From the IMG/VR virus record IMGVR_UViG_3300010151_000009, positions 1 through 64,000 of that record: 64,000 bases of DNA; one strand, 5' to 3'. Shown here piece after piece: positions 31,734-60,962 of the stretch (positions within the stretch are counted from its first letter, which is position 1; every line of letters starts with the position of its first letter). The DNA is from a virus. Below the pieces are notes generated by a model that saw only the letters and a list, made by a program, of their open reading frames with translations, did not search any database and was not told where the DNA came from. Both the position numbers and the translations under genes were made by a program.

Positions 31734-32125
31734 TATTTTTTAACCTTTTCGAACGATCTACCTCCAAAATACGCTCCGATTACAGTTATGAGTACTAGTT
31801 GAAGGAGGTCTGTCCATTTTTCTTCAACGTTAAATGCTATTTCTCCAGCATCAATAAAAATCATTAACACTGTAGAAACAACTAAAAATACAAGAACTGC
31901 TGGTCTAACATTCTTAGCTAACCAAGAATCAGAATTCATATCAGATTTCCAACGATCTGTTATTGTTTTCTCCATCTCTACTTCATAGTTAGAGATTAGT
32001 TCTTTTACTTTTTGTTCAGCTGCAAGCTTTTCTTCTTTTGATGTAGTTAAATCATCAATAACACCCCCAACTCCTTTAACTAACTCAGTAGCTCCACCTG
32101 AAAATATTGTACTTAATATACTCAT
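31733..32125 (-). CDS. Holin (3TM-holin/GTA-type)
   Basis: 130 aa. DSWLAKNVRP, two hydrophobic helices, C-terminal AYFGGRSFEK; adjacent to the endolysin candidate. Confidence 0.85.
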   Translation of the reverse strand: MSILSTIFSGGATELVKGVGGVIDDLTTSKEEKLAAEQKVKELISNYEVEMEKTITDRWKSDMNSDSWLAKNVRPAVLVFLVVSTVLMIFIDAGEIAFNVEEKWTDLLQLVLITVIGAYFGGRSFEKVKK

Positions 32126-32129
32126 AATT

Positions 32130-32600
32130 TTATTTTTTATCTAAATCTATATAGGTTATTGTTACTTCTTCTCCATCTTCTAAAGCTTTAGCAATTGGCG
32201 GATATACTCTCGCATACGCTTGAGTAGAACTACCAATGAATCCATCCTTTTTAATAATATTACTCGTTTGACTATCACCCAAGAGTAAACAACCTGCAGT
32301 ATGGTCATCAGTATTACCACAATGAATGAGAATATACTTAAAATTAGGTACATTACGCACATGAAGAGTGCCCCTATGTACACCAGGAAATCTTTTAACG
32401 TATTTTTCATGTAATCTTCCAACTGTTCTTAAAGTTATTTTATAAGTTCCTTGCGGAATTCTTGTTTCTGTTCTAATTTTCTCTTCTCTATACTCATCTT
32501 CTAGAGTATAACAAAGAAATTCTATACCATTCGTTACATCAAATAGCAGTCCGCTCGTAGAGTCTTTTTGACTACTAAATCTTAATACTTGTAACTTCAT
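32130..32600 (-). CDS. Putative endolysin (DUF5675-like)
   Basis: Motifs CYTLED, TRIPQGTY and NVPNFKYILIHCGNTDDHTAGCLLLG. The probable start is the ATG at 32600 (MKLQVLRF), overlapping the upstream TAA as TAATG, rather than 32615. Confidence 0.75.
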   Translation of the reverse strand: MKLQVLRFSSQKDSTSGLLFDVTNGIEFLCYTLEDEYREEKIRTETRIPQGTYKITLRTVGRLHEKYVKRFPGVHRGTLHVRNVPNFKYILIHCGNTDDHTAGCLLLGDSQTSNIIKKDGFIGSSTQAYARVYPPIAKALEDGEEVTITYIDLDKK

Positions 32601-32971
32601 TATCCTGCTGTCCAATAGCCAAACTCAATCTCCGGTGTATTTGCAGATGCTTTAGCAATTAGACTCATTTCCTCTTCATTTAAAGCTGTTTTATAAAAAC
32701 AGATTTCTCCTGGTCCTAATAGAGCCATGCCAACAGCGCCATGAAGAATTGTAATAGTATCTGTAGTATCTTTATTTTGAGCATAAAGCCAAGTTGGTTT
32801 AGTCATTGCTATAGTATGTAAAGTCACTCCTGCAACTGACGTTGCTATTATAGAAGTATTTACTAAAGGACTTTCAACCGTTAAAGTATCTGATACATTA
32901 AGACCATATGATTCTGTAGTCGAAATATTGATGCTAGTAAGTCTTAGGTTTGGTGTTAATGTTCTTGCCAT
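32600..32971 (-). CDS. Hypothetical beta-rich virion protein
   Basis: 123-aa ORF, translationally coupled to the downstream gene. Confidence 0.55.
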   Translation of the reverse strand: MARTLTPNLRLTSINISTTESYGLNVSDTLTVESPLVNTSIIATSVAGVTLHTIAMTKPTWLYAQNKDTTDTITILHGAVGMALLGPGEICFYKTALNEEEMSLIAKASANTPEIEFGYWTAG

Positions 32972-43000: not shown

Positions 43001-45609
43001 TTATTAACTCCTACACAACAAGAGTCAGCATTGTTTTCATCCCAATATGTATTTCTTCTTTGAGGACTTTGAAATGCAGATACTCCACTATATCCTACAT
43101 TTAAAGCTGTTCCAAAATTAGTAGGAGAAAACGGTAATTGTGAATAAAAAGCTTGCCATCCCGGATCAACACTTCCTTCAAACCATGTATCTTCAAATAT
43201 TCTAAATCCAGGCCCATGCCAAGAACTAAGGTTGGTAGGAAAAGTTAAAAAATCAAAAGGATATAATGCTGAAGCTGTTCCAGGTAGAAAATGACCATCT
43301 TTGACAGGTTTATTACCACTTCTAATTGCAGCAAATCCATGCATAACTAATGCAGAAAGTAACCATCCATTTCCCATTGGATAGAAAAAACAATTATTTG
43401 ATTTCCCAGCTGCATCCCAAGTATTCCAAGCATTTTTATATTTTCTATACATCCCTTGAAATGGTGAATTTGTTGTAAAGTTATTTCTCCATGATGAGAA
43501 ATTCTCATCTGAATTATCTTGATTTTTAGGAGTAAGTACAACTGGAGATGCACCTGGATTATTAGTATTAAGCATAAGAGTATCCCAAGCCGGAGCAGTT
43601 TTAAAAGCAGCCGGTCCTACAAACCAAAAAGCACTAAGAATTGTAAAATACCCAAATGCATTATGGACTGCCGCTGGATCCCACACTCTATGCTCATCCA
43701 TCCAATTAGAAAGCCATACTGAACTCTCAGCTTCATCAAGAAACATAATAGATACTGGATCATTTACTGCACACATAGTAGTCCAATGTGGCATATTTGC
43801 TTCTCCAGCTGGAGTATTATACCAGCCACGAACAGCAACAGGATATGAAGGAAGAAATCCTCCGGGAGGTGTCCAAGTAGCTGAAATCCAAGAATTAATT
43901 TGTTCATAGGGAACAGTTATAGCTGGTATAACATTATTATACTCATCTCTATCTATACTATGAGTTAATCCATGAGTCCAATTACCACCTGGTGCAGGTG
44001 TAGTATCTACCTCTCTAGACATCTTCATGTACCAATTTTCAATATTATTAGCTACGATCCAAGCTGCTATTTTTATTTCATTATATAAATAACTATTAGT
44101 AACATTAGTATTTGCTATTCCTGGTAATCCGCTTTGCCAAATAATGCCGGAAGCACCTGCCGATGGACTAGGATCTTCCATTGGATAATTACCTTGTTCT
44201 AACCATCTTTCTCTATTAGTCATTATATGATATTGTTCACCAGCCCATCCAGCAGCTTGTTCAGCGTCTAACCAAGTTTTAACAGTAGAATATGTTTTTA
44301 TTACTTGAGTTGTTCCCCAAGATGAAGTATCATACCATATATAAATATCATTACTAGGACCTAATTGTCCTCCCCCACAATTAGGGTTTGCCCAAGGAGG
44401 AAATGGAGCACCAAATGGATGGTGTGTTCCAGTCACAGTACAGACACCTCTTGTTATAATTTGTACAGATCCAGATTGATTAACATTTGGTACTTGATAA
44501 AGAGATACTCCATTTGCAGTTATCCAATCATTTACTGAATTACACCACGTCATACCAGGTAAGAATTGCCACCCCTGCCATCCAGCACTATTTAGATTAT
44601 ATTCATAATTTAATAATGCTGTACCATTACCTAAATGTAATATAATTTCTGGCCATCCGTTCGAAGCATTAGGTTCACAAATTTCATCATAAATGATATC
44701 ACATTTACCTGTTTGTGTACACGTATGTTTATACTTATGCTGAACATGCATATGCCATGAAAAGTATCCTTCTCCTACACCATCATTAGCAGGTATCCAA
44801 TTAAATATTCCTAATTCATCTTCTAGAACCCTATTATAATCTAACATAGGAGTACTTCCTGCAATAGTTGGAGGTGGTACAGTACTCCACCACATATTAC
44901 TACCCTGCCCATTTACAACTATAGCTTGAAAAGCCTCATGAGTTCCACCGTTTGCAAAAGGATAACCTTTGATAAAAGTATCTAGGTCATCAGTAGTATT
45001 TGTAGCAATATCAATTAAATTTGTATTTAATGTGCCATTAGGATCCAACATAATATTAAACCATACCATTTTATGTGGTCCTCCATTATCAGCACTATTC
45101 CAAAAATGTCCACTTTCATAAAAAGAAGATGTTCCATTATTATCACAAGTTTCTTGGCCAGCCCATGCAATAGTTTTTGGATTTGCGCTCCATAAAGCTC
45201 CTCCTGCTCCTATTTTAGTGTCCCAACTCTCTAGATCATGATAACATCCCCCAATAACCATTTCAACTGGGTAGACAGCAACATGTCCATTTAAAAGATC
45301 ATCAAACGTTAATTCCATGTGCATGATGAATCCAACATCATCTGTGCAATTCAAGCTTTCCATCTTCATTATATAATAACGCTGGTCAGCTAAATTCTGT
45401 GCGGAATTTTGTCTAATATGAGGGCCGTCAAAAGTTACTACTATTGTTGGTTGACTGGCGGGAGCACTCCATGCAATATTAGCATCTGTAGTAAGTATAG
45501 ACCACGGATCTAATAATGTAGATGTATCATTAGGTTGGGCTATTATAGCATAAGCAGTGTGATGATCTTGCCTCCATGCGTGTATACTAAATTTAAAAAT
45601 ACCATCCAT
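37093..45609 (-). CDS. Giant Cys-rich repeat virion fibre/adhesin (2838 aa)
   Basis: About 20 GC(T/M)DPxAxNYxxxAxxDDGSC-type repeats interspersed with beta-sandwich-like segments; located in the tail module; no signal peptide evident. Confidence 0.75.
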   Translation of the reverse strand: MDGIFKFSIHAWRQDHHTAYAIIAQPNDTSTLLDPWSILTTDANIAWSAPASQPTIVVTFDGPHIRQNSAQNLADQRYYIMKMESLNCTDDVGFIMHMELTFDDLLNGHVAVYPVEMVIGGCYHDLESWDTKIGAGGALWSANPKTIAWAGQETCDNNGTSSFYESGHFWNSADNGGPHKMVWFNIMLDPNGTLNTNLIDIATNTTDDLDTFIKGYPFANGGTHEAFQAIVVNGQGSNMWWSTVPPPTIAGSTPMLDYNRVLEDELGIFNWIPANDGVGEGYFSWHMHVQHKYKHTCTQTGKCDIIYDEICEPNASNGWPEIILHLGNGTALLNYEYNLNSAGWQGWQFLPGMTWCNSVNDWITANGVSLYQVPNVNQSGSVQIITRGVCTVTGTHHPFGAPFPPWANPNCGGGQLGPSNDIYIWYDTSSWGTTQVIKTYSTVKTWLDAEQAAGWAGEQYHIMTNRERWLEQGNYPMEDPSPSAGASGIIWQSGLPGIANTNVTNSYLYNEIKIAAWIVANNIENWYMKMSREVDTTPAPGGNWTHGLTHSIDRDEYNNVIPAITVPYEQINSWISATWTPPGGFLPSYPVAVRGWYNTPAGEANMPHWTTMCAVNDPVSIMFLDEAESSVWLSNWMDEHRVWDPAAVHNAFGYFTILSAFWFVGPAAFKTAPAWDTLMLNTNNPGASPVVLTPKNQDNSDENFSSWRNNFTTNSPFQGMYRKYKNAWNTWDAAGKSNNCFFYPMGNGWLLSALVMHGFAAIRSGNKPVKDGHFLPGTASALYPFDFLTFPTNLSSWHGPGFRIFEDTWFEGSVDPGWQAFYSQLPFSPTNFGTALNVGYSGVSAFQSPQRRNTYWDENNADSCCVGVNNVPGGSGSALLHDAGYGGLDNYGWDLAQQHFDVGVTTTSFVNTITPFLYTLGGSGVCGCADCHCLAISVVDQFGVPVTGYDIHLELNGGGNVLIGTTNALGFVYHTVTTPGPITDALINTCHQLITGAATGAQISNTIGSADWGNCTNSLIEIVLHQSSFNSTIACCTTLGCTDPMMCNYDPMACIDDGSCFMCIPGCMDPAACNTCVGCTTDCNNNLPGSAAYILGGTWGVDTCCLYEGCMDPTAANYSASYNADCLCTLGGPDTSCCIYPCCDPPSITNTFTANASNPCPTDYDFLFTCDLITNGVIATYDIELRFDPGGANTLVAGTSFAGLPITDPISATYSYDCINSIDEFIHGAGNYQVNISLYYGGASGTKCNYSSPITAVVLEVCGCTDPLASNYNAAADCDDGTCTYGTNGCLDVCAGDYSNVWTNNCDGTAAGTTAVGWNSCCHYWHIFQTCNGSNEFFAPVASTIAQTVDDNQDWFDAFETALGASILPGETVMMPYYTNGGGWGTTLTCWEYVGQVCHDTWPVLPNTYNYSMLPLPGPGLPLPNPALVPATVAATHATTNCSVCVATYGCTDVNSTNYNAGATIDDGSCIACLDDGSMPMTYINNMGGFGSLYPGTPATNLLDNCAGFTITNPGYDDGCCIYPTPCAQCTGLTSGTGATNGPCVVDMWVMLTCPTPGPSPITTVVWSLSYEIAPAVFTVINANVQTDSGVNTTYTHSIIEDCNTLLNSGAPYFANGDGTYKWIATVTYADGTVCNHEYTQAITLPVCGCMDPTAGNYNPLATCPCCTLCDGTDDNDCCGCPPGQTEIELVLSDDNLSGMDLAWDTCTITLTGQNTGTVYGPYTWTSNSVAYPTITTFSADIFCAEDDCYLVETCLVVPPDIIGNYLAWSLIDVNTATTIGSGTLGMFATSWQVTVGTPTPACCIYGCMDPLASNYNSAATCHCDDSDPLAALYGPPCVLGQTGPDCCCIPCVYGCTDPLAFNFDPTATCDDGSCCLIDGCPDITTVNANHATLVGACNYDAAACADCDQVMGGASTTCCTYPGCTDPTAINFDASAGCPCNSVNPYNIVNDNDCCLYCTTYGCMDPVATNYDVTADCPCDGTFGAPCVGGQTILTNADGCCCEYCNTGCAVTPGYINYDPTATCDCNGDPLTIPGDATSGPMNLGYDSCCQPCANGCMDWVNYSFPGNYDATATCDCVGNPPGSTAYVFAGTYGDISCCVNCTAGCQDSLNPWYCPTCTCPGPCCPMGCTDTTPGSNPDINGNDSLGNPCIFPCVDGYDVCNFDPAAVCDDLSCSQCTAGCTDPLALNYDPFATGSSVVDCRYCDATTGWIEDYTQIVGAADDLGHIIGPSGPTSSSTQVSTNCGAPADGTLSVVGNAPGMAVTSYYIPFAPITWTIELYATTANGNDWSSGGAILISSQGGLPIPTFTFTGLDWGWYAYKLIPSTGHTEGDQCFESGEQNVLVNVCSNSSSPNYYNSAPCNTVQPAINTNAANPPDWSLHQNCNPCCTTVSGCGCGVTTWTNIAGGCVTNGTIFAGLNCMANGVNPACGGTITWRFENSSGAIIASGVDTVPPNPGSYTATYSAPITGNDTYQFCHDEVWNACANFPQAICAEHCVPIVVSNFTLCDCMDPAATNYNPAATANCDGSTPALIPNTTGVPPCCDYCVYGCMDATAINYDAAATCDCCCIYPGEGCTDPEALNYDSTATIPCPDLDLDLRPDCCEYCPRFDCIPVPATAIDTCAVNPLVLWQDCGAMVTLGLQNAIDFAAYNCWPNAETLCNGIVSLHGIWADLSTYGGLTCDPCNTNWPDECCEDNAISGTSQIKRRIIAISNTCFPGTYITWGDYIVGAITHAYSLSAAKGNALKAKLVKASGTAGYVDDPLNTYGAGLAFCANISPWSGSPDIATIHISDVLDPGNIDSNRMAWVPCCDGPCNCVETLMGYYLNISHCQSDPDSI
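37790..42500 (-). repeat. Protein-level GCxDPxAxNY repeat array
   Basis: Examples: GCTDPMMCNYDPMACIDDGSC, GCTDPLASNYNAAADCDDGTC, GCTDPLAFNFDPTATCDDGSC, GCTDPEALNYDSTATIPC. Confidence 0.9.
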
Positions 45610-49345: not shown

Positions 49346-50794
49346 TTAAGATGCTGTACAAGTGATGTCTAAAGAGGTATCAAAACGTCTTAACGCGATA
49401 CCTGCAGTTTTCAACATATGTACAGACGCACCGTCTACATCAGACGCTCTAGTGGAATTACCATCAAAGCCTCTAGGGATCACCGATCCAGCTACACACC
49501 ATCTCATAGACTCACGACCTTTCTTAGAGATCATTTGAAGGTTATTTTGACCATCATAATTTGATTGATCAACAAATACCATTCTATAAGATTCAAGTGA
49601 ATAACCTGTAGTAGGGTGTTTTGCACGAGCTTGTGCAACTGCACCATGATCAAACATAGGAATTTTTACTACATTCACACTATGTCCATCAATATGCTCG
49701 TACGAAGTGAAGTATCCAGACATTCCTAAAGATCTTCCTGATCCCGTGATAAATCTGTTTTCTCCACCTACTTTCCAGCCACCAGCAGCTCCACCGAAGT
49801 GGTTTTTAAGAGCTTCGTCAAATTCACGAGCTCCGCCAGTTCCTGTATACAATGTAACTTGTTTTGCAGAAGCGTCAGTCATACTATAAAATAAATCACC
49901 AATAATATTTTTCAACTTAGTTTCTGTCATAACAGAATAAGTATCTTTATTAACGATTTGTGATAATAGTCCAGGACCTATAATTACAGGCTGGCCATTC
50001 TCATCTTTCATAGAAGTTAAACCATTAGTATCGTAAGTTTTCTCACCATACCAGTAGTAATTTTCACACTCTTCTTTAAAATCAAGCATATGTAAATATT
50101 CTTCATAATCCATCCAAAGTTTAGTAGTTTTTCCTCCTTTCGTTGGAAGAGAGAATTCTGCTACATAATCTTTAGCGTTTCCAGACATATGGTAAGATTT
50201 TCTAACCGTAGTTAGTTTGTTTCTTACTTTACCTGGAGTTTCCCAGTTTGAAGCGTTACCTCTTGAGAAGTCCGTTCCAACTGGTGCATACATTTGTGCC
50301 CATAGTGCACCTGAGTCACAATCAACTGTTGGTACAGTTGCTGTAAGTGAAGGATTTACTATTTGACATGTGTATGTCCATTCATTTCCGCCCGCTGCCA
50401 TTTCTGGTTCTTTCATAATACGTACTTGTACTCCTGATTGGGAGATTAGTACATATGGAAAGATAAACCATTTGTCAGGGAAGGTTAACTCAAAGGATGC
50501 TCCTCCAAGTCCTATGTTTGCTGCTGCATTTGGCGTAGATACAGGTCTAGTCCTCAATCTGTGTGTTGCCACACGATACTCATATTCCAACCTGTCAATA
50601 GACTTAGTGTTACCAACGCCTTCAGTTAAGAAAGACAATGGAAAACGTTTGTCGTCTTTTCCAGCTAAATGAGTAATTATTGGTGATAGTTCCGTAGGTT
50701 TAGCCAAAAGCGCATTTGCTAGACTGTTCATATCAGTCATTTGCGTATCGTTGTAAAACGATTTTTGTACGCTGATGTTTGTTCCGTTCGGCAT
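49346..50794 (-). CDS. Major capsid protein
   Basis: 482 aa with FPLSFLTEG, RNKLTTVRKS, GPGLLSQI, LYTGTGGAREF and HPTTGYSLESYRM, matching the crAss-like MCP pattern; GC-richer, biased codon usage. Confidence 0.93.
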   Translation of the reverse strand: MPNGTNISVQKSFYNDTQMTDMNSLANALLAKPTELSPIITHLAGKDDKRFPLSFLTEGVGNTKSIDRLEYEYRVATHRLRTRPVSTPNAAANIGLGGASFELTFPDKWFIFPYVLISQSGVQVRIMKEPEMAAGGNEWTYTCQIVNPSLTATVPTVDCDSGALWAQMYAPVGTDFSRGNASNWETPGKVRNKLTTVRKSYHMSGNAKDYVAEFSLPTKGGKTTKLWMDYEEYLHMLDFKEECENYYWYGEKTYDTNGLTSMKDENGQPVIIGPGLLSQIVNKDTYSVMTETKLKNIIGDLFYSMTDASAKQVTLYTGTGGAREFDEALKNHFGGAAGGWKVGGENRFITGSGRSLGMSGYFTSYEHIDGHSVNVVKIPMFDHGAVAQARAKHPTTGYSLESYRMVFVDQSNYDGQNNLQMISKKGRESMRWCVAGSVIPRGFDGNSTRASDVDGASVHMLKTAGIALRRFDTSLDITCTAS

Positions 50795-50841: not shown

Positions 50842-51966
50842 TTAAATACTTAAATCTAGATCATCTATATCAAATTTAGTGCTTCGTCGTTGTCCTGCTT
50901 TTGAACTTTTAGTTCTTGATTCATTCCTAGAAATTCTATCTTTTAACGATCGTACACTTTGTGTTTTAGCTTTCGTATTAATAATGGTATCCAGATCAAA
51001 TCCTTTAAACATTAAATAATCTATAGCTAATTTCACATCCATATCTGCTTCTAAATGATCTACATCTCTTTGCGTATATCCTTCCTTATTTATAGGAGTA
51101 GATAAATACGCATAGAAATCATTTTTATCTTTTTCTGATACTTTTAATCCTGCAAACTCTCTTGAAGTTTCTATAGTATCTGAGATTCCACTCCAAAATG
51201 TTTCTTGTTGTTGAGCGGTTTCTTGTTGTTTTACTTTTTGTTTTTCTATTAATTGTGCTTTTTCTTCATCTTGATACTTAGCTAAAGCTTTACGTGCAGC
51301 TTCTGATCTATCACGTAATTTACCAGTATCCTCATAATCTTCAAGCATCTCTTTAATAAATTCAGTTTCATGTCCTTTCATTGCTAAATAATCTCCTAAA
51401 ATAGCTTTCTGACTTCTTGAGTCATTATCTGCTATACTTAAGTTATTATAATCCACATTAGGATCATTCGCATTCATAAATTCCTGAGATTGTCCTCCAT
51501 TTAATACATATTCTAAATGTTGTTTTACCAATGGAAATTTATTTAAAACTGTGTCTATTCTTTCATCTGCCATTTGAGAAGCAATATCTTTAGTCATCTC
51601 AATTAGTCCTTCTGAAGTATCATCATAGTTTGCACCATCTACTTCATAACCTAGATTATCTAAAACTTCATTGATTATACTTTCAGAATCTTCTTCTTCA
51701 TCTTCTTCAAGTTCATCTATATGATCATCTTTAGTATCCTCTTCTTTTTCTTCCTCCTCTTCTTGTTCCGGAATTTCAGGATCAATTTCGTCAAGTGTAG
51801 GAGAATCTGTATCTTGTTCGATGTCATCTAAAACCGGAGTCTCCTCAGTTTTTGTGACTTCTGGTTCTACAGCAATTTCTTCTGTAGATTCCATTGCAAC
51901 ACCTTCTCCTGATAATACGTCATCAAAAGTGATATCGTCTAGTTGAATTTTTTCATTTGGGTCCAT
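50842..51966 (-). CDS. Putative capsid scaffolding protein
   Basis: 374 aa with a very acidic disordered N-terminus and a helical C-terminus; directly upstream of the MCP. Confidence 0.7.
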   Translation of the reverse strand: MDPNEKIQLDDITFDDVLSGEGVAMESTEEIAVEPEVTKTEETPVLDDIEQDTDSPTLDEIDPEIPEQEEEEEKEEDTKDDHIDELEEDEEEDSESIINEVLDNLGYEVDGANYDDTSEGLIEMTKDIASQMADERIDTVLNKFPLVKQHLEYVLNGGQSQEFMNANDPNVDYNNLSIADNDSRSQKAILGDYLAMKGHETEFIKEMLEDYEDTGKLRDRSEAARKALAKYQDEEKAQLIEKQKVKQQETAQQQETFWSGISDTIETSREFAGLKVSEKDKNDFYAYLSTPINKEGYTQRDVDHLEADMDVKLAIDYLMFKGFDLDTIINTKAKTQSVRSLKDRISRNESRTKSSKAGQRRSTKFDIDDLDLSI

Positions 51967-51987: not shown

Positions 51988-52058
51988 CAAAATTAGTTAA
52001 TTATAGCGTTTAATTTTTGGTTTTTATTTTTTCTATATGTCTATTATTATATAACACT
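51988..52058 (-). promoter_or_regulatory. Putative late promoter: upstream box AGTGTTATATAATAATA plus Bacteroidota -7 element TAATTTTG
   Basis: TAnnTTTG at 51988-51995 and a 17-bp box at 52042-52058; the same arrangement recurs upstream of the portal gene. Confidence 0.65.
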
Positions 52059-55000
52059 TACCATGCTAATCTTTGCTTGTATCCACCCGTCTTTTGTATT
52101 GATGCAGTTAATACAGCATCTTCCTCAGCAGTATAAGGTTGTAGTCGTCTATTAATATAACGATTAATTTGACTAATATATGCTTCTGGATTTTCATCAT
52201 TACTCAGTTTATCACGCGCATGAAGTGCAAACTCTTTACCAAATAATGACTCTAGTCTTCCCCAGTTAGTACCACTAAGATCTGAAGTCTCTCCAAAATA
52301 ACCTTCACGAAGTAATTCAAGTTGTGCATCAATACTCATTCCCTCATTCTGTCCAAATTTAAATAATTTACCAGAACCTTGGTTATGAGTTAAAATTGTC
52401 ATATTACGTACATCTTGTTCTGTTAATCCTAAACTTGGATTATCTGTAGCATATTTACTAAGCACAGCATATCGACGTGCAAATCTATCTATAGTATAAG
52501 CTAATGATCTCGAATCTTGATCATCTATATTAGCATCATTTAAATTATAATAATCAGCTGTACCTTGTGCAGTTCCATCTAATTTTATTTTTAAAATTCC
52601 TCTGGATACAGCTCCTCGGTCACTCTCTTCACCTATAATATTTCTTAGTATTCTTGATTTTGCTATCTTAGTATCAGTTGGTTTATTTAATCCTAAATGT
52701 GATTCATGCATTGCTGTAGCTAAGACAGCTTCACTTAACCAATTATGATCTATTTCGATTCCTAAATCACTTGTAATTGGAGCAACATTATTTTTTACAA
52801 AATTAATATTATCATTTAAAATTTCTTTTTCCTTATCTGTATAACCTATTAAAATTTTATTATCTACTTTATTGTTTTTATCACCAATTTCTATAGTATC
52901 TACTTTTTCTCTTTTCTCTGCAAGAAACTCAATGTAAGCATCATTATCATGTTGGATTTCTTCTGACTCATATTGATATTTCCATTGAGGTTTATTTGTT
53001 TTTGGAGAGGTTACCCAAGCAATTCCACCCCCAGTAATATCATTATACGCATCTTCATGCACTATTCCTCCCGCTCCTGTAGCATTAATTTGATGACTAA
53101 TATAGGGAACTCCATCTCTAATTTCAGTTACCCATCCTACGTGTGTATTATATGAATCTCCAGTATGTCCATCATAAGCTGCCTCCCATTCTCTTGAATT
53201 GTCATATACAAGGCCAACTACATCTCCAACTTGAAATATTTCTGCTGAAGGTTGATTAGTTTTTCTATGTACTATAGATTTTGTTCTTGCATCATTTGCA
53301 TTTAAAACATTATCAAAATCTGAATGATTATAAATACTAAATTTTTGTACTCCTCCATGATCTATTATATTTTGTTCCATTGTCCAGGCATGTCCACCAA
53401 CTCCCATTCCCCAAGCATCGTATCCTTCTCTTTCATATTCATTATTTACATATTCTGCACACCCATCTTCATAACAGAAACTATCTCTGTTTGCAGGATC
53501 AAAATATAAGGATTGTGTAGTTTGTAATTTATCCATCAATACTTGTTCATAAGCTAATTTTGTCATAGGTCCAAATTTTCCATCTACTCCATCTTTATTT
53601 GGTCCATATGATCCAAGCATGTCCCCTCGACCAGATGCAATAATTTCTCGTTGTATCTCTTCTACATCTTCTTGATTCATCCTAGTGTATTGTCCAAAAT
53701 AAGTTTTAACAACTTCTGCAGCAGATTCTTTGACTTCTTTTTCTGCACGTATCTGATTGTTCTGTTCGATATTCCTATCATAAGACTCGTACATGTCTTT
53801 TACGTTTACATCAGTTAAGTTATGATCATAAACTTCAGGTTCTTTTTCATCTTCCACTACTTCTGGTGCATCTTCAGGTTCCTCAACTGTTACTGTAGGT
53901 ATTATAGGGACTTGGGATTGAATTTGATCAGTTGGTAAAGGTTCTATTTGATATAAATCATTATCATAAAATCCTCCATCTTGTTTTTTAGTAGATTTTC
54001 TATTATTCCATTTCTTCCTTTCTTCATCTTTATATTTTTTAGGTAATTTATCCCAAGAATATTTTACTTTACTCTTATCTTTTAAAGTATAACTAAAAGA
54101 TTTCTTATGATATTTTCCCCAAAATTCAAATATTTGCTCGTCAGTAGGAGGTTTCTTTCCTTTAACTAATTTATCAAAAGCATCTCGTTGTTGTGTACCA
54201 TGATAAATTTTCTCAATTAAAAAGATAGCATCTTGATCTTCTTTATCAAATGTTGAAAAATCTGAAGATGAATTTTGATAATTATCCTTTAATTTATTTA
54301 CAGAACTATGATTTGCTTCTCTAAAATCTATATTACCTTTATTTTCTAAAAACTGTTTAGTAACATTTACTGCAGTATTACCACTTCCGTCTTCAGTATT
54401 CTCAAATTGATATGTTCCTCTACCAGGTCCATCAAATGGAACTCTTTTACCATCTACTGTTTTATAAGACACCTGCTTTTGTTCAGGATTATTATATGAC
54501 TCATGATTACCAATTGCACTCATAACTGTTCTAACGTAATCCATATTTCGCCCTGTCTTAATTAAGTAATTTTTTGTAATTGTATATAAAGATTCGTGTC
54601 CAGCATCGTGAGTTGCTCTAACTTGAGAAATATATTGATCTGTTTGTGAAGTTGCAGGTTTAATCCCATCTATAACTCCTTGTGGAACTTTAGAATCTCT
54701 ACCTCCTCCATTTTGATACTTTCTTAATCCTCCTTTTTTAAAAGTAGTAAATGGATTTTTACCATCATTTGTAAGTTGTCTTATCTCATCTCCACTTAAG
54801 ATTCCTTTAGATTGTCTTATAGGAATATTTTGTTTCCCTACAATTTGAGTTGTTGTACTAATTCCTGGAGGATGTATAGTATTAGTATTTATCACTCCTC
54901 CATGAGGTATCTTATCAAGACTTTTAATATCCGTGCTTGTATTAAATATCCCCATACTAGGATCATTATGTCCATAATTATCTAACCCACTTATTCTGTC

Positions 55001-56281
55001 ATATATCTGATCATTACTAAGTTTTGAAACATCATCCTCAAATATATTTATTTTTGAAGTATATGCACTTCTGTCAGGGGCTCTACCATATCTAGAATGT
55101 GTTTGTCCTGGAAAATCTCCATAATATACAACATCACTGTTACCACGTACACCACTAAAACCCGCTCGATTTCCTACTCCTCCAGTAGGAGTTGTACCCA
55201 TAAACTCAGCTAATTGTTTTGGGTCGCTAGGATCAAATCCATATTTCTCTGCTGCTTTTAGTAATTCCTCATTTCTCATAACGTTACCATTTATATTAAC
55301 AGTACGATATGCATTATTTCTTGAAGAATACTCCTTAAGTAAATCTTCTCTAGTAGTTATTTGTTTATATCCAGCATCACTATTTTTAACTATACCTGGT
55401 TGGTGTAAATCAGATAATTGTTTATTTAATTGTGCTTTTTTTCCTCTATCTAGAACATTATAAACTTTTTTACCAACGTTTTTACCCTGTTTAAGAACAG
55501 CTCCTCCAGCAAATGGTACGGCTATACCTGCCATTGAAAGACTTGCGTCACCATAATTACCTCTGTATGTAGATGCCGCAGCACTTAAAAGATCTCCTAC
55601 TTCTGAAACAATTGGAATACCTGTCATACCTATAGCATCTCCCGCTTTAACAGGATCTGTTAAAAACTCTGTTATATCTTCCTTAGCTTGTATCACATGT
55701 TTTTTTGTTGCCTCTTTATCATCAGCTACTTTTACATTTTTTTCCTCGAAAGTCATTGGAGTCCCATCTTTATTATAGTACTTAGAACCTTGAGTTGTAC
55801 TTACAGTATTAGAAAGAATTCCTTTATTTTTTGCTGTCTTTGTCGTACCAGTCTTTTCTTCTTCTAAGAATTGGTTAATAAACGCATCCTTATCAAATCC
55901 AGCATCTTGATATTTTCTTACACCACCTTTTTGATAGGTACCAGGAGATTCAATAACAGTTCCTTCATCTTCTCCCATAGAAAGATTTTGTATTCCTGGA
56001 GGAACAGATTTATATGATCTAACTAAATTACCTTGATTGTCAACTTTTTTAATGTCTATAGGTTCAGACATTCCTACAGTATTCATAGGACCTGAAACAT
56101 TTGGAAATACCATACTAGATCCAGGAGGCGCTCCTCTTAAACCTTGCTCTTGCTCTGCTTTAGTTCGAGCAACTTTAGCATTTGCAATCTGCTCTTTTTT
56201 AATTAGATCTCCTATAGATCCTTTATAATCATTAGCAAGAGCTGACTTTAATATCTCAAATTGTTTTTCTAATGCATTCAT
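52058..56281 (-). CDS. Multi-domain virion cargo protein: pre-toxin-like plus putative ART-like domain, lysozyme-like, PG-binding, CHAP/NlpC-like and SLT-like domains
   Basis: 1407 aa. Motifs: AIGNHES...GPGRGTYQF; VEEIQ..GVDGKFGPMT; DGCAEYV..GHAW..GDVVGL..THVG; AMHES..SRGILKIK..THNQG. Domains are separated by KxxxGG motifs. Confidence 0.7.
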   Translation of the reverse strand: MNALEKQFEILKSALANDYKGSIGDLIKKEQIANAKVARTKAEQEQGLRGAPPGSSMVFPNVSGPMNTVGMSEPIDIKKVDNQGNLVRSYKSVPPGIQNLSMGEDEGTVIESPGTYQKGGVRKYQDAGFDKDAFINQFLEEEKTGTTKTAKNKGILSNTVSTTQGSKYYNKDGTPMTFEEKNVKVADDKEATKKHVIQAKEDITEFLTDPVKAGDAIGMTGIPIVSEVGDLLSAAASTYRGNYGDASLSMAGIAVPFAGGAVLKQGKNVGKKVYNVLDRGKKAQLNKQLSDLHQPGIVKNSDAGYKQITTREDLLKEYSSRNNAYRTVNINGNVMRNEELLKAAEKYGFDPSDPKQLAEFMGTTPTGGVGNRAGFSGVRGNSDVVYYGDFPGQTHSRYGRAPDRSAYTSKINIFEDDVSKLSNDQIYDRISGLDNYGHNDPSMGIFNTSTDIKSLDKIPHGGVINTNTIHPPGISTTTQIVGKQNIPIRQSKGILSGDEIRQLTNDGKNPFTTFKKGGLRKYQNGGGRDSKVPQGVIDGIKPATSQTDQYISQVRATHDAGHESLYTITKNYLIKTGRNMDYVRTVMSAIGNHESYNNPEQKQVSYKTVDGKRVPFDGPGRGTYQFENTEDGSGNTAVNVTKQFLENKGNIDFREANHSSVNKLKDNYQNSSSDFSTFDKEDQDAIFLIEKIYHGTQQRDAFDKLVKGKKPPTDEQIFEFWGKYHKKSFSYTLKDKSKVKYSWDKLPKKYKDEERKKWNNRKSTKKQDGGFYDNDLYQIEPLPTDQIQSQVPIIPTVTVEEPEDAPEVVEDEKEPEVYDHNLTDVNVKDMYESYDRNIEQNNQIRAEKEVKESAAEVVKTYFGQYTRMNQEDVEEIQREIIASGRGDMLGSYGPNKDGVDGKFGPMTKLAYEQVLMDKLQTTQSLYFDPANRDSFCYEDGCAEYVNNEYEREGYDAWGMGVGGHAWTMEQNIIDHGGVQKFSIYNHSDFDNVLNANDARTKSIVHRKTNQPSAEIFQVGDVVGLVYDNSREWEAAYDGHTGDSYNTHVGWVTEIRDGVPYISHQINATGAGGIVHEDAYNDITGGGIAWVTSPKTNKPQWKYQYESEEIQHDNDAYIEFLAEKREKVDTIEIGDKNNKVDNKILIGYTDKEKEILNDNINFVKNNVAPITSDLGIEIDHNWLSEAVLATAMHESHLGLNKPTDTKIAKSRILRNIIGEESDRGAVSRGILKIKLDGTAQGTADYYNLNDANIDDQDSRSLAYTIDRFARRYAVLSKYATDNPSLGLTEQDVRNMTILTHNQGSGKLFKFGQNEGMSIDAQLELLREGYFGETSDLSGTNWGRLESLFGKEFALHARDKLSNDENPEAYISQINRYINRRLQPYTAEEDAVLTASIQKTGGYKQRLAW

Positions 56282-58590
56282 TTCTTAGTAGTTCCTGAAC
56301 TTGGCTTAGGTTTTGCTTTTGCAATTTTCTCTTTAGACTTAATTTCTTTACCTTTAAGTTTAAGTTCATCCCTTCTAATACTTTCATCTGCTTTATTAGC
56401 TCTTTCTTTTTCATCTGCTTCTTTTACTTTAGTATCAGAATCTTGCAATTTAACTCCTATCTCTTGATCGCCTTGTACAGAATCTAAACTAATTCTAGCA
56501 TTATTGTCATCCGCATGAATCATAGCAACTTTAATTTGAGTTTCTCTATCTTTTTGCTTATTCATGTTATCATTCTCTAGAACATCTTTAGCTTGTTCAA
56601 GTTTTTGTTGCTCAATTTCATTTTTAGATTGTTGTTGTTCTTGTTCTAATTGTTGTAACTGTTTCTCTGCAGCAGCTACTTTTGCTTTAATAGATGAGAA
56701 GTTTTCAGATTCTAACATATGAACTATAGTTGAAGACGGAACTCCATTTTGAATCATTGATTGCGATAATTGTTTTATTAGATCTAACTTTTCTTGCTCT
56801 TTACCAGAATCTTTAACAAAAATACCATAATTTGATTCCATATGAGACATGCTATCAATATCTAGAAATTCTTGAGTTCCATCAGGCATCATAAAAGCAG
56901 CTTTCTTTCCGTCAATCCAAGCTTCTTTAGAATAATCTAACATTGCTTGTAAATCTCTTTGTTCCATTCTATTAAACTTTTTAAATAAATCTTCTGTAAT
57001 ATGGGATGATTGTACAATTGCTTGTTGAGCAACTGCTTTACCTTCATATGGACCTACTGTACCTTGTCTTTGTCTATTAACTCCAGATAATTTTTCCCAT
57101 TCAACCATAATTGACTCTAATAATGCAATATATTGATCAATAGTTTTAATTGACATATCCATTACAGATTGATGTTGAGGATTTAATTGTATTCCTTCTT
57201 TATTATAATCTACCCAAGCTATTCCTGTACCTTCAACATAATACATAAACTTATCCATATCCCATTTTTTAGGGATCATATTAATATCAAATTGAGCGAT
57301 AATGTCTTTACTTCTTGCAATAGCAAGTTCTAATCTATATTTATAGATATTATATGTTAATTGAAATGGGATCCCGAGAGCTACTAAAGAAATATTTTGA
57401 GCGTTTGTATCTGAATAATGTCTTCCATTTATAGGAAGTTTACATGTAGATTCATTATCTAAAGATTCTCTTTGATTAGCTATAGGATTAATATTAATAT
57501 ACATTCGTCCATCAATTCGTGTACCTTCCCAAACTTCATTTACCCACATCCAAGAAATTTTAGCTCCTTGAGCTTTCATTTCTGCAGGCATTCTGAATCC
57601 ATCTTCTACCTCTTGTTCTTCCATAGCTCCAGTCAAAGGATCTAAGTAAGATAAAAACCCTACTCTTTTCCTAGATTTCCAATATACATTTATAACCTCT
57701 AATAATCTATTTCTATAAGCATTAGGATCTTTACCTGATGAACTCGCATACATTAAATAAGAGTCTGCTTCTGAATGAGTAGGATTTTCTAAATTTAAAA
57801 CTTGTTCTTCAGTTAACCATTCATAATATTGATCAACAACTGTAGACGCATGCATGTATTTTCTAATTAATGCCCAATCTCCATCTTCAACAAACTCTAA
57901 ATCTGGGTCTAAATCATAATCTACATCAATTGGATTTAATACGTCTAAGAATGGTTCTCCATTTCTAACTCCTCTATGAGTATAAGTTTCTCCAGCAACT
58001 AAAAAATGAAACCATGCCTGACTAAATTTATCTTCAGCTTCTTGCTGAGCCATAACATATGTTAAAGCATGTTGTCCTTTAATAGCTCTGTTATCTACAT
58101 ACGAATTCTCAAATTGATCTGCTATATGTTGAGGTAACTCTATATCATAATTATCAATGCCTGTATCTACTCCTCGAGCATTCATTTGATTAACAAACAT
58201 TTCTTGCATACCTCTCATAATAGCGTCTTGTTTTGACTCTTCTTTAATTGAGATTGCATCTGCATTTTTAACTACAACGGTGAAATTGAGAGGTCTTTTA
58301 GACTTTTCTCCGAGAAGGAGATCAATTATAGGCTTTATAATAGGATAGTTACGCATTCTAGATGGGAAATTACTTCGACTTTTACCATACGGTTTAAGTA
58401 CGTGCGTATAGTCTCCCTCATCAATTACACCATTATAGTAATCATATAATCTTTTCAGATTATCTTTATTAGTGGCATATCCAGTACCTTGATTTGAGAG
58501 GTCAATATATGCCTCTACACAAGCTTCTCTCCACTGTTTAGTTTTTTTATTGACAGCTAACCTCTGCCGTGGTATTTTATCATAGCCCAT
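56278..58590 (-). CDS. Portal protein
   Basis: 770 aa with NYPIIKPIIDLLLGE, YWKS, WVNEVWEGTRI, CKLPING and SGVNRQRQG plus a C-terminal coiled coil, matching the crAss-like portal pattern. Confidence 0.93.
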   Translation of the reverse strand: MGYDKIPRQRLAVNKKTKQWREACVEAYIDLSNQGTGYATNKDNLKRLYDYYNGVIDEGDYTHVLKPYGKSRSNFPSRMRNYPIIKPIIDLLLGEKSKRPLNFTVVVKNADAISIKEESKQDAIMRGMQEMFVNQMNARGVDTGIDNYDIELPQHIADQFENSYVDNRAIKGQHALTYVMAQQEAEDKFSQAWFHFLVAGETYTHRGVRNGEPFLDVLNPIDVDYDLDPDLEFVEDGDWALIRKYMHASTVVDQYYEWLTEEQVLNLENPTHSEADSYLMYASSSGKDPNAYRNRLLEVINVYWKSRKRVGFLSYLDPLTGAMEEQEVEDGFRMPAEMKAQGAKISWMWVNEVWEGTRIDGRMYININPIANQRESLDNESTCKLPINGRHYSDTNAQNISLVALGIPFQLTYNIYKYRLELAIARSKDIIAQFDINMIPKKWDMDKFMYYVEGTGIAWVDYNKEGIQLNPQHQSVMDMSIKTIDQYIALLESIMVEWEKLSGVNRQRQGTVGPYEGKAVAQQAIVQSSHITEDLFKKFNRMEQRDLQAMLDYSKEAWIDGKKAAFMMPDGTQEFLDIDSMSHMESNYGIFVKDSGKEQEKLDLIKQLSQSMIQNGVPSSTIVHMLESENFSSIKAKVAAAEKQLQQLEQEQQQSKNEIEQQKLEQAKDVLENDNMNKQKDRETQIKVAMIHADDNNARISLDSVQGDQEIGVKLQDSDTKVKEADEKERANKADESIRRDELKLKGKEIKSKEKIAKAKPKPSSGTTKK

Positions 58591-58668: not shown

Positions 58669-58998
58669 TTAAAGATAATCACATATACTATATAAACTAT
58701 ATTGTAAAGTCAATTCTTCTCCTTGTTCTATTTTTCTTAATGTTTTTAATTTTTTGTAATCATCATTTTCATCATCTTCTATAAGTTCACAATTAGGAGT
58801 TTCAGAATGATTAATAAATCCTCCTAATGGCGTACGTATATAATCATGTTGAAAATTTGGATCATATACATGACTTATACCTATAACTACCTCCCCCGGA
58901 ATATCTTCTGTAGCGAGAATCCCAGCTCCATGAATTTGTGACGGACCTATTGCTAAGTACTCCGGTAGAGGGTTATAAGGTAATTTCTTTTTTTTCAT
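58669..58998 (-). CDS. Stand-alone SET-domain lysine methyltransferase
   Basis: 109 aa with the SET signature motifs SQIHGAGILATEDI, GFINHSETPNC and IEQGEELTLQY. Confidence 0.9.
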   Translation of the reverse strand: MKKKKLPYNPLPEYLAIGPSQIHGAGILATEDIPGEVVIGISHVYDPNFQHDYIRTPLGGFINHSETPNCELIEDDENDDYKKLKTLRKIEQGEELTLQYSLYSICDYL

Positions 58999-60962
58999 TA
59001 ATAATAATTTTTATTAAACCATTCATTAGAAGCATTATCTTCTAATATATCTTTAACTTCTGCATTATATAATTCTTTAGTATGATACATACCAATCATA
59101 AATGCCATTACACGGTCAAAATTGCCTTTATGATTGAATTTAATTAATTCTGTTAAAAATGCAGGATCATAAATCTTATGCAAATTTAGTAATTGTTTTC
59201 CATTTTCGTCTGTTCTTCTTACAGTATTTAACCAGTCTCTAATATAAATCTCTCCTTGACGTTTCCTAGGTTCTGTCATGTGCATACCATATTGACGTTT
59301 TACTGTTCTACTTCTAAGTTCTTTTTTATCTAACATCTCAAACTCTTCTTGTAATTTATGTAACTTTCTATGTCTTTTAGCGTATGATATAACCTCCCCA
59401 CGATCATTCTCAAATCCTATTTTACATCCATAATAATCTGCTAATGTAAATAAATTTCTATTATAATCATCTTGCGTATTAGGTCGTCCTACATAAGATG
59501 CTACTATAATATCATCAGGCTGAGATAAATTATTAGGTCTTTTTAATACATATGCAGCGCCTAATGATGTGCTATCTGCAGATTGGTTTTGTCCATACGG
59601 GTCATGACAAATTACATACATATTTAGAGGTACTTGTTGCGCAGAGTTTTTATAAGGAGATTCATATATTACTACAGCTCCTGTAGTATCATCATCTTTC
59701 CTATGAGGAAATTTTAATACTTGTTTTAAATCTCCATCTGGTTTAAATTTAACATCTCCTTTAGAATTATAATATAAACGTCCAACTGTACCTATAGCCT
59801 GTAAATTATTAGCTTTTATATTATTATATTGTTCTTGTAAAGATGCAACATCAAATAAATTAGCAGTTACTTGTAAAGTAGCCTCTTGAGGTGAAAAAGG
59901 GTGCTCCGCTATATATTGGTCTAATGATTTTGCATCAGCTGCACCCTTCTTCTTTTCCCTCATTCCTTTCTCATACTCTATAGCTTGTTCTCTTATTGAA
60001 TTTCCATTCTCGTCTATAAAGCCATCTAGATTTGTTTGTATAGGAATAAAATATCCACATGTACTCCCCATAGCACCTTCATCCCATATATTCTCATAAT
60101 TCATACAATCATATGCTTCTGGATTATAAAAGATTTCTTCCATTGCCTCAAAATCTGCTCCTTCTGTACCACCTGTTCCAAAAGCTACCATTAATCCTAG
60201 TGTTTTAGAACCTTGTCTCATTGTTGGCATTGTTACTTCCCATGCTTTTAATAGTCCTGGGAATGAACCCGCTTCTTCAAAGAATACTAACTCCCCTGCT
60301 TTACCCCTTACTTTATCTGGTGCATCTTTTAATGATACTCCCATTATTTGAGATTTCATCCCCATTTCTATTTCAATTCCATTAACTTTTTTCTTATATC
60401 CAGACATCTTATTCATTTCCCTATCACGTAATCTTGGTTGAGCCCATGCCGTATGATCATCTATAAAAGATAAAAACTCCCAAGCTTTTGAGAGTAATCC
60501 ATCACCAATTAAATATTCTTTTTGGGAGGCAAATACAAAGTTTTTTGAATTCTTTACAAAGAAATAGTTTCTAGCAAGCATGGCTCCAGCTTTATAAGAA
60601 TATCCTTTACGCCTTGCTTTAAGAACAATCATATGTTTATTCTCTGCCCTAGCTTTGTCTATCTCATTAAAATATTCCCAATCTCCATCATAAAATCTAG
60701 GAAATGTACGTTCCCGTTTAGATTGAATTGTACCATCTGGAAGTTCTTCATCTACAGCCCTATCAATAGGACAGTAGTTTAAATAAAAATAATGAAAGCC
60801 TGTAACATGTAATTCATCTACTTTATATCCATACATGCACCGTTCCTTTTCTTCATCCCAATACTCATAATAATCACGAGTTCCAGGAAGAGCATCTGTA
60901 TAACGACCGGTCTCTAAAAATCTGACTGCGGCTGGTCTGAGTCTGTCTGTGTCTCTGAGCAT
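58998..60962 (-). CDS. terL: Terminase large subunit
   Basis: 654 aa. Walker A KARRKGYS, Walker B VFFEEAG, coupling motif GTGG, nuclease motifs CHDPY and NFDRVMA. Confidence 0.96.
   Translation of the reverse strand: MLRDTDRLRPAAVRFLETGRYTDALPGTRDYYEYWDEEKERCMYGYKVDELHVTGFHYFYLNYCPIDRAVDEELPDGTIQSKRERTFPRFYDGDWEYFNEIDKARAENKHMIVLKARRKGYSYKAGAMLARNYFFVKNSKNFVFASQKEYLIGDGLLSKAWEFLSFIDDHTAWAQPRLRDREMNKMSGYKKKVNGIEIEMGMKSQIMGVSLKDAPDKVRGKAGELVFFEEAGSFPGLLKAWEVTMPTMRQGSKTLGLMVAFGTGGTEGADFEAMEEIFYNPEAYDCMNYENIWDEGAMGSTCGYFIPIQTNLDGFIDENGNSIREQAIEYEKGMREKKKGAADAKSLDQYIAEHPFSPQEATLQVTANLFDVASLQEQYNNIKANNLQAIGTVGRLYYNSKGDVKFKPDGDLKQVLKFPHRKDDDTTGAVVIYESPYKNSAQQVPLNMYVICHDPYGQNQSADSTSLGAAYVLKRPNNLSQPDDIIVASYVGRPNTQDDYNRNLFTLADYYGCKIGFENDRGEVISYAKRHRKLHKLQEEFEMLDKKELRSRTVKRQYGMHMTEPRKRQGEIYIRDWLNTVRRTDENGKQLLNLHKIYDPAFLTELIKFNHKGNFDRVMAFMIGMYHTKELYNAEVKDILEDNASNEWFNKNYY

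Follow-up and report, generated by a model that had tools for sequence, protein, structure and literature searches.

The polyvalent proteins of phages and conjugative elements carry 2-15 distinct domains per polypeptide (main text of Iyer, Burroughs, Anand, de Souza and Aravind 2017; PMC5512222), while the genes of the MuF polymorphic toxins of temperate phages lie immediately downstream of the portal gene, as far as the article of Jamet et al. (2017; PMC5576092) describes them. In the crassvirus crAss001 the genes of the cargo proteins gp45 and gp46 follow the muzzle gene, gp45 has been proven to be a cargo protein by mass spectrometry and cryo-electron microscopy, and the cargo is described as being kept close to the portal and leaving the particle in a partly unfolded state (main text of Bayfield et al. 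2023; PMC10172136). Here we describe a 1407-aa protein (P0001) encoded next to the portal gene of a crAss-like phage, in a window of 64 kb which forms positions 1 to 64,000 of the 84.5-kb IMG/VR virus record IMGVR_UViG_3300010151_000009. The protein is built of modules that are separated by short basic peptides containing Gly-Gly (GG), which we call tags. We judge the chances to be about even that it is a 'polyvalent' internal virion (cargo or ejection) protein with a DUF192 head and with tags that serve as uncleaved handles, confined to one clade of marine crAss-like phages.

Like the polyvalent proteins, the 1407-aa protein is very large and multi-domain, is encoded with the portal and terminase genes of the head, is predicted to be packaged and injected, and combines domains of lysozyme and peptidase type with further effectors under extensive mosaicism (PMC5512222, main text). 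The portal-terminase context of that class is found here in the order TerL, portal, 1407-aa open reading frame (ORF) and major capsid protein (MCP). As to the effector domains of the class, a lysozyme-superfamily fold is predicted in our protein, and ART-PolyVal was detected in only one of 35 related proteins (E 1.8e-6) and not in the query; no MPTase was found. Unlike in the polyvalent proteins, the constant head has a predicted DUF192 fold and is not a MuF, portal or other carrier domain described in that article, the main text of which does not use the word 'linker' and describes no conserved inter-domain tag (PMC5512222). With the MuF toxins the protein shares the portal-adjacent gene and a conserved N-terminal domain followed by variable C-terminal effectors, and the role proposed there for the N-domain, incorporation into the head via the portal, is similar to the one proposed here; it departs from them, as they are presented in that text, in having several effector modules in series instead of one, with GG tags between, and in coming from a crAss-like, probably lytic phage whereas theirs are temperate (PMC5576092). 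Nor is there a MuF domain, since neither PF04233/PF06152 nor MuF3/4 had a Pfam match in the 1407-aa protein at E<=1, and the DUF192 carrier fold is unrelated. An immunity gene was not noticed, no dedicated search having been made, and the gene downstream encodes a conserved acidic protein and is not a variable small gene. With crAss001 gp45 (C1) the protein shares the virus order and the kind of ends, gp45 having a basic leader with xxTGG and a GG followed by a basic tail (Bayfield et al. 2023), yet the two have no detectable sequence homology. Furthermore, the gene after the portal of crAss001 encodes the head fibre gp21 and not cargo, and the main text on that phage describes no wall hydrolase among the cargo, the word 'peptidoglycan' occurring in it 0 times (PMC10172136). 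The initial annotation of this locus, made from the sequence, had offered a phage analogue of polymorphic toxin systems as the novelty, an idea which is already in print (PMC5576092 and PMC5512222, in the parts cited). The general concept of polyvalent proteins and MuF toxins is thus known, and it is the tag system and the DUF192 head that appear to be new; in the literature searched, no paper on this protein family or its tags was found. A further comparison is offered by T7 gp16, a large ejected internal virion protein with a lytic-transglycosylase domain that crosses the peptidoglycan at entry. The present protein differs from it in its 2-3 hydrolase domains accompanied by unrelated modules, its hypervariable content, its tag system and its portal-adjacent gene.

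The 1407-aa ORF and its four GG tags stand where the initial annotation had put them (Table 1). The protein as a whole gave nothing significant in Pfam, PHROGs or the PDB sequences, and neither a transmembrane segment nor a signal peptide was found in it, the best 19-residue Kyte-Doolittle mean being 1.38. Its anatomy was read from two AlphaFold2 (AF2) models, one of residues 771-1407 (96-row alignment, mean predicted local distance difference test score, pLDDT, 81.2) and one of residues 1-540 (43-row alignment A6, mean 59.0), together with fold searches by VIA-align over all PDB representatives and by Foldseek, and with the profiles A3 (block 771-1407) and A4 (module 3). At least six structural units were distinguished in this way, namely the DUF192 head, module 2, module 3, and the peptidoglycan (PG)-binding, NlpC/P60 and lytic-transglycosylase (LT) domains. 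The tags have the form [FY][QK]xGG-hydrophobic-[RK][KR]YQxGG and are basic (pI 9.5-10.5), and the 374-aa protein encoded in the adjacent gene is acidic. Disorder (pLDDT <50) is predicted at tag 1, at tag 2 and in the C-terminal tail, so that the proposed coincidence of tags with domain borders holds for the two full tags and the tail. The stretch starting right after the degenerate tag 3 is likewise disordered, and at the site of this tag at least 13 of 33 module-3 homologues carry a canonical tag, following the KKWNxRTK end of the module.

The head is predicted to have a DUF192 fold. Residues 1-117 were modelled with pLDDT 73-93, and their best two structural matches in VIA-align, 3pjy (Z 10.1, root-mean-square deviation (rmsd) 2.5 Å over 91 residues) and 3m7a (Z 9.3), are two solved DUF192 proteins, the next match scoring 6.4; 3m7a was also retrieved by Foldseek (E 1.6e-4). 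PF02643 (DUF192) matches 9 of 9 family heads, with a best E of 1.7e-7. The query head itself scores 20.2 bits (E 6.4e-4), which is below the cut-off of 27, and the relatives L028 (28.2) and L014 (27.5) lie above it. No paper on the function of DUF192 (COG1430, UPF0127) was found in the literature searched. In two family members (P0004 and P0163) the DUF192 beta core at residues ~34-80 is replaced by a Q-/P-rich stretch, the first ~33 residues, which form the two helices, and the tag being kept, so that what is really constant in the head may be its helical hairpin. As a separate observation, for the 1-540 model BFVD lists a fold match (E 3.7e-4, rmsd 18.6 Å) with S0A572, a proteomically annotated 'structural protein' of the cultured marine Cellulophaga phage phi4:1 (KC821632). 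The record of that phage is matched neither by PF02643 nor by profile A6, and this link was not used as evidence.

In the C-terminal block, profile A3 matched PDB entries with PG_binding-type repeats, 4nso (E 2.7e-8), 7rum (1.6e-4), 6tci (1.2e-3) and 1lbu (6.6e-3). Residues 923-1096 are predicted to have an NlpC/P60 fold with a Cys-His-polar triad and a putative activity. VIA-align matched them to 6bim (Z 10.1, rmsd 2.9 Å over 115 residues), 7cfl (9.7) and MepS (9.7), many NlpC/P60 chains, these included, matching at Z 10.1-8.2, and the catalytic residues C941, H1047 and H1063 are kept in 80 of 80, 84 of 87 and 83 of 87 alignment rows, respectively; the Pfam model of NlpC/P60 had no match in the query at E<=1. 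For residues 1115-1379 a family-1 LT/goose-type lysozyme fold, with the corresponding activity, is predicted. Here the matches were MltF (5aa1, Z 11.4 over 159 residues at 3.9 Å), MltC (11.4), phiKZ gp144 (10.7) and MltE (10.2), scores which for a helical fold lie below the caution level and are not decisive alone, and the call rests on the fold together with the motifs, that is E1193 (88 of 88 rows) with S/T as the next residue, N1300 of a YNxG-type motif (88 of 91) and Y1368 (89 of 89). Pfam SLT gave no match in the query, and Foldseek returned none at E<=0.001 for the 637-residue model of 771-1407. Elsewhere in the family, modules of L049 (2163 aa), L039 (1612 aa) and P0011 match Peptidase_M15_3 (E 7.4e-7), PG_binding_1 (weakly, E 0.0099) and Pfam SLT (E 1.4e-14), so several kinds of wall-active modules circulate among these proteins.

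Module 3 does contain the HES...GPGRGTYQF sequence (residues 593-626) on which a lysozyme-like domain had been proposed, and in its ~33 homologues, which occur in many architectures, E594, Q603, Q625 and E627 are near-invariant. Pfam, on the other side, was significant in 0 of 35 members, with one Phage_lysozyme2 match at 0.064, the module-3 profile had no match in PDB, and hhalign gave a probability of 0.07 against the LT block and aligned only the common head against P0011. Clusters named SLT, Destabilase and Phage_lysozyme2 in the ESM Atlas, at 0.87-0.90, are a lead only. Module 2 belongs to a cluster (M2) of 9 segments, being the second module in 8 proteins and the third in L009, and it had no match in Pfam, in PDB profiles or in the fold searches (VIA-align, Foldseek); the ESM Atlas gave clusters at 0.82-0.83, one of them 22% ART-PolyVal, again as a weak lead only. 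A second level of exchange is seen inside module 2, away from the tags, as P0009-11 share with the query only residues 116-298/320 and P0012 only residues 1-266, after which P0009-11 and P0012 each continue with a different domain. Residues ~379-446 of P0012, in the part that replaces the C-terminal half of module 2, weakly match the catalytic cores of protein kinases (CSK, E 0.019), which hints at different enzymes in the exchanged halves. The pre-toxin domain PT-TG had no Pfam match at E<=1 in the 1407-aa protein, and residues ~215-265 may resemble it in a way that Pfam did not return; this candidate half of module 2 is the constant one and the half behind it is exchanged.

Set beside these results, the domain list of the initial annotation kept its PG-binding, Cys/His and SLT-like members; the lysozyme-like one, with no significant Pfam or PDB profile match, and the pre-toxin one, with no Pfam match at E<=1, are no more than candidates. 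Its 'CHAP-NlpC-like' Cys/His domain turned out on the NlpC/P60 side (Z ~10), CHAP chains scoring lower. Of its three wall hydrolases two, NlpC/P60 and LT, are supported by fold and catalytic residues, as is the PG-binding domain beside them, with leads only for a third at 527-764, and for the toxin-like effector Pfam, PDB profiles and fold searches identified no fold.

We examined how far this architecture is shared. A word-based search gave 12 homologues of 828-1400 aa, all sharing the head and otherwise mosaic, and a head-profile search of IMG/VR gave 169 relatives, 80 loci of which were analysed; in all, 83 distinct family proteins were compared. Complete head-starting ORFs, their starts across these metagenomic sequences being first-ATG calls, were present in 66 of the 80 loci and ranged from 147 to 2257 aa, the shortest (L026, L036 and L041; 147-149 aa) consisting of head, tag and a tail of 10-20 residues. 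The core of the tag, [FYMLW][QKRE]xGG, a post hoc expression written after the data had been seen, occurs 170 times in the 83 proteins as against 19.3 times expected from 200 shuffles per protein. Seventy-five of these occurrences stand directly after the head (in 75 of the 83 proteins), 79 are internal and 16 lie within 18 residues of the C-terminus, and many relatives end in GG with a short basic tail. When the proteins were cut at the tags, 211 segments of at least 40 aa fell into 75 clusters (at least 50% mutual coverage), and most modules had no Pfam family match. The clusters shift in position, M1 being third or last, M2 second or third and M6 second to fourth, which agrees with the earlier proposal of a modular protein with exchange among relatives, the architecture being far from invariant. 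Of the internal BLAST endpoints 48% are found no more than 15 aa from a tag, compared with 10% of random positions, and with the head tag left out 39% compared with 8.9% (maximum 13.2% in 500 trials), for 402 endpoints in 41 proteins which, as ends of high-scoring segment pairs (HSPs) between related sequences, are not independent. One HSP, with L009, spans exactly residues 116-526, from tag to tag, and P0004 shares a block of 83-100% identity that covers residues ~150-513, the similarity breaking off at tag 2. The turnover is visible between close relatives, since L001, L002, L004, L007 and L009 have TerL proteins 87-90% identical to that of the window (68-90% in the relatives at large) and quite different module sets. 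The position of the gene, on the other hand, is fixed; of 64 loci with at least 1500 nt of upstream sequence, 63 have a portal homologue immediately upstream, and all 41 loci with at least 2500 nt of downstream sequence encode the acidic protein and MCP on that side.

The same ends, which the initial annotation had not noted there, were found on other putative cargo proteins (Table 1). Among 55 ORFs of this genome the C-tail pattern occurs in 3 (0.11 expected) and the N-leader pattern in 2 (0.04 expected), both patterns having been defined post hoc, and 0 of 1000 shuffles reached either count. The 517-aa and 867-aa genes hold the place that gp45 and gp46 have after the muzzle gene of crAss001, and from the gene order their products are likely to be positional equivalents of the cargo. 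Homologues of the 867-aa protein are present in 4 of 5 related records, several with similar ends, whereas a search for related loci with the 517-aa protein gave no relative. Among the post-muzzle proteins of those four records, GG with a very basic tail is seen in L089 and in both proteins of L090, and a basic leader with KYQPGG or KQTGG in L091. In crAss001 the leader of gp45 ends in FDTGG (residues 17-21) and the protein also has AKGG with a basic tail, while gp46, gp47, gp49 and gp50 have no such ends. By BLASTP neither the 867-aa nor the 517-aa protein has overall homology to gp45, the similarity of the 517-aa protein being weak and local. When the two sequences were compared by BLAST, its Gly-rich hydrophobic residues 428-441 matched the region of the predicted transmembrane helix of gp45 (10 of 14 identical, E 0.007), and the leaders of the two proteins aligned; from these alignments the 517-aa protein may be a distant counterpart of gp45. 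Seen across these proteins, the tags look like a shared cargo signal.

We argued that if the 1407-aa protein is internal cargo of the virion, its head would be the constant part that directs it into the procapsid, as its portal-adjacent position suggests and as the unrelated MuF/gp7 domain would do elsewhere. Behind the head would come a string of independently folding modules, among which the PG-binding, NlpC/P60 and LT block would open the peptidoglycan at entry. An internal tag can be read as a C-terminal cargo tail (xKGG plus basic peptide) joined to an N-terminal leader (basic peptide plus YQxGG), and the whole protein would then be a concatenate of cargo modules behind a constant head. 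The tags would be flexible, positively charged handles that hold the cargo in the procapsid, against the acidic 374-aa protein or DNA, and that let the modules thread out one by one. Because every module would carry the same handles, any module could work in any order, and because the order would be irrelevant, recombination could reshuffle the modules at the tags. More generally, and more tentatively, it is possible that Crassvirales use a 'cargo code' in which a short basic peptide with an aromatic-Q/K-x-Gly-Gly hinge, placed at one or the other end of a protein, marks it for storage in the particle and for release in order, whether through docking or through cutting after GG, with the portal-adjacent gene as a plug-and-play rack that would accept any module bordered by the code.

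Several observations weigh against cargo with uncleaved handles. The virion location is read only from gene position and the common end motifs; relatives are all metagenomic, a tblastn search of cultured phages (INPHARED) having given no match to the whole protein or to the head alone. The proven cargo protein gp46 and the 4625-aa protein of the window lack GG ends, and the post-muzzle protein of L092 has a basic tail without GG. The DUF192 core, being replaced in P0004 and P0163, cannot be indispensable, and the AF2 confidence of module 2 is patchy, although low pLDDT may reflect the shallow alignment. The post hoc patterns and the dependent HSP endpoints given above belong here too. Finally, aromatic-Q/K-x-G-G is strictly conserved on the upstream side of the break, which a protease site would explain no less well than a handle.

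This last point leads to the strongest competitor, which we regard as somewhat unlikely, namely a true polyprotein the tags of which are cut after GG by a phage or host protease, the leaders and tails being trimmed and the modules freed in the head or after ejection. The adenovirus protease and the pS273R protease of African swine fever virus (ASFV) cut at GG-X sites, both viruses have internal particle proteins with short basic terminal peptides bounded by Gly-Gly, and ASFV uses true polyproteins. In the present family the internal tags are most strongly conserved in the five residues ending in GG, with an aromatic first residue in 72 of 79 and Q or K in 76 of 79, they lie in disordered and accessible stretches, GG-delimited short peptides stand at both ends of other putative cargo proteins, and the order of modules is irrelevant. 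Autoproteolytic release of domains has moreover been proposed for polyvalent proteins in the main text of Iyer et al. (PMC5512222). Adenovirus and ASFV are, however, unrelated viruses and cleavage here is hypothetical. Pfam showed no clan-CE protease or other peptidase family among 33 window proteins, a scan that left out 64-84.5 kb and several small ORFs, a host protease being possible as well. Most tag-bearing family members lack NlpC/P60, the sole papain-like domain, and the minimal proteins of 147-149 aa would release merely a peptide of 10-20 residues. The main text on crAss001 also does without the word protease and without words beginning in cleav- or proteoly- (PMC10172136). Uncleaved handles are favoured over cutting because of the acidic 374-aa neighbour, the lack of a peptidase family in that scan and the poor cleavage substrates that the minimal members would make.

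Less probable, and in our opinion unlikely, is that the tags are flexible linkers or recombination joints only, with no part in binding or processing, their likeness coming from joint descent or from selection for exchangeability. The clustering of breakpoints at tags, the disorder of the tags and the differing module content of close relatives would all follow. The two full tags, however, agree at only 33 of 45 nt and differ in their Gly codons, which indicates that they are conserved as peptide and not as DNA recombination sites. The earlier proposal of recombination at tag-coding sequences is therefore borne out as to where the breakpoints cluster and not as to the DNA, which has diverged while the peptide was kept. 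Furthermore, other proteins that are not mosaic carry the motif at their free N- and C-termini, where a joint would be superfluous, it is kept though the heads of the relatives carrying it are only 43-58% identical, and not every breakpoint is at a tag, the left edge of the P0004 block being ~25 residues beyond tag 1. A late multi-domain endolysin or lysis-phase enzyme merely sited in the head-gene block, which the PG-binding, NlpC/P60 and transglycosylase domains and the missing signal peptide (typical of holin-dependent endolysins) would suit, is very improbable in view of the fixed position between portal and MCP, the family members most of which lack these domains and some of which are only head and tail, the holin-family gene with a neighbouring small gene elsewhere, and a size and mosaicism that match the ejected polyvalent proteins (PMC5512222, main text).

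The late genes of the window are all on the minus strand and run downward as TerL, SET-domain ORF, portal, 1407-aa ORF, 374-aa protein and MCP, followed by ring protein 2, ring protein 1 and the muzzle. The crAss-type structural block is present with Crass_capsid, portal, TerL, muzzle and both rings, ring protein 2 matching PF25702, ring protein 1 PF24228 and the muzzle PF25731 in Pfam. The start of the 1407-aa ORF overlaps the end of the portal gene by 4 nt. The first 150 aa of the 374-aa protein contain 56 D+E as against 8 K+R, and the protein had no family match in the Pfam/PHROGs-type searches.

Table 1. Coordinates in the 64-kb window of the 1407-aa ORF, its parts and the other genes discussed.
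Feature	Residues	Coordinates	Strand	Basis or remark
Whole ORF P0001, 1407 aa, stop codon included		52058-56281	-	open throughout
Head, two helices then predicted DUF192-fold beta domain	1-115	55937-56281	-	hidden Markov model and fold
Tag 1, YQKGGVRKYQDAG	116-128	55898-55936	-	pLDDT <50 at 118-128
Module 2	129-513	54743-55897	-	helical half ~129-300 kept in relatives; C-terminal half ~300-513 replaced in some
Tag 2, FKKGGLRKYQNGG	514-526	54704-54742	-	pLDDT <50 at 514-540
Module 3, candidate lysozyme-like/SLT-like (HES...GxGxYQFE)	527-764	53990-54703	-	unconfirmed
Tag 3, KKQDGG, degenerate	765-770	53972-53989	-	outside both structure models
Acidic disordered linker	771-841	53759-53971	-	pLDDT <50; 20 D+E vs 3 K+R
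PG-binding-type helical domain	~870-921	53519-53674	-	profile A3 and model helices 100-119, 135-151
Predicted NlpC/P60-fold cysteine peptidase domain	923-1096	52994-53515	-	fold and Cys-His-His
Predicted lytic-transglycosylase/goose-lysozyme-fold domain	1115-1379	52145-52939	-	fold and motifs
C-terminal tag QKTGG with YKQRLAW (basic-aromatic tail)	1396-1407	52061-52096	-	pLDDT <50 at 1400-1407
TerL		58998-60962	-	phrog_6681, E 3.5e-140
SET-domain ORF, 109 aa, between TerL and portal		58669-58998	-	PF00856, E 5e-10
Portal, directly upstream of the 1407-aa ORF		56278-58590	-	phrog_6547, E 2.7e-122
374-aa protein, directly downstream of the 1407-aa ORF		50842-51966	-	N-terminal half acidic; resembles a scaffold in position only
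Major capsid protein		49346-50794	-	Pfam Crass_capsid, E 8.6e-83
Very basic 286-aa protein, gene flanked by those of ring 2 and ring 1		30092-30952	-	ends YRTGG + 11 residues; weaker case
Muzzle		22958-28732	-	PF25731, E 4.7e-44
517-aa protein, directly after muzzle gene		21399-22952	-	basic leader, full bipartite tag at residues 22-35; C-terminal GG + basic tail
867-aa protein, next after 517-aa gene		18793-21396	-	basic leader + YQMGG at residues 7-11; C-terminal KKGG + basic-aromatic tail

A gap of ~415 nt between TerL and portal is restricted to the closest relatives (L001-L004, L009 and L017), the others having 30-90 nt, and going by these coordinates, not by translation, the 109-aa SET-domain gene seems to be limited to a sub-clade. 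The GG-V-[RK]-K context of the tags presumably resembles a histone-tail lysine site, and that the tags are a substrate of the SET-domain protein is pure speculation. An ORF of the holin family GTA_holin_3TM (31733-32125, minus strand, E 2.2e-5) adjoins a DUF5675 ORF (32130-32615, minus strand, E 4.6e-26, phrog_1501), and the two are possibly a lysis pair separate from the hydrolases of the 1407-aa protein, which, with a holin-family gene lying elsewhere, need not be lysis enzymes. Two giant ORFs on the minus strand, 2713-16590 (4625 aa) and 37093-45609 (2838 aa), had no Pfam match at E<=0.01; by its position after the post-muzzle genes the 4625-aa protein is probably the virion RNA-polymerase-type protein of crassviruses.

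The structure of crAss001 has raised the question by what means the ~5 MDa of internal proteins of crassviruses are selected, stored and ejected (PMC10172136, main text). If a sequence signal is indeed common to gp45, the post-muzzle proteins and every module of the 1407-aa protein, cargo selection would become testable by fusions and terminomics, and such a signal would also be a handle for putting foreign proteins into phage heads. Should the cargo code hold, marine crAss-like phages would swap entry enzymes and host-directed effectors as cassettes, and the DUF192 fold would gain a first role, as a capsid-loading or periplasm-acting carrier. The dozens of module families without known homologues are candidates for new host-takeover or wall-breaching activities, and the logic of polymorphic effectors would operate in the abundant uncultured crAss-like phages of the ocean too, on a DUF192 carrier fold.

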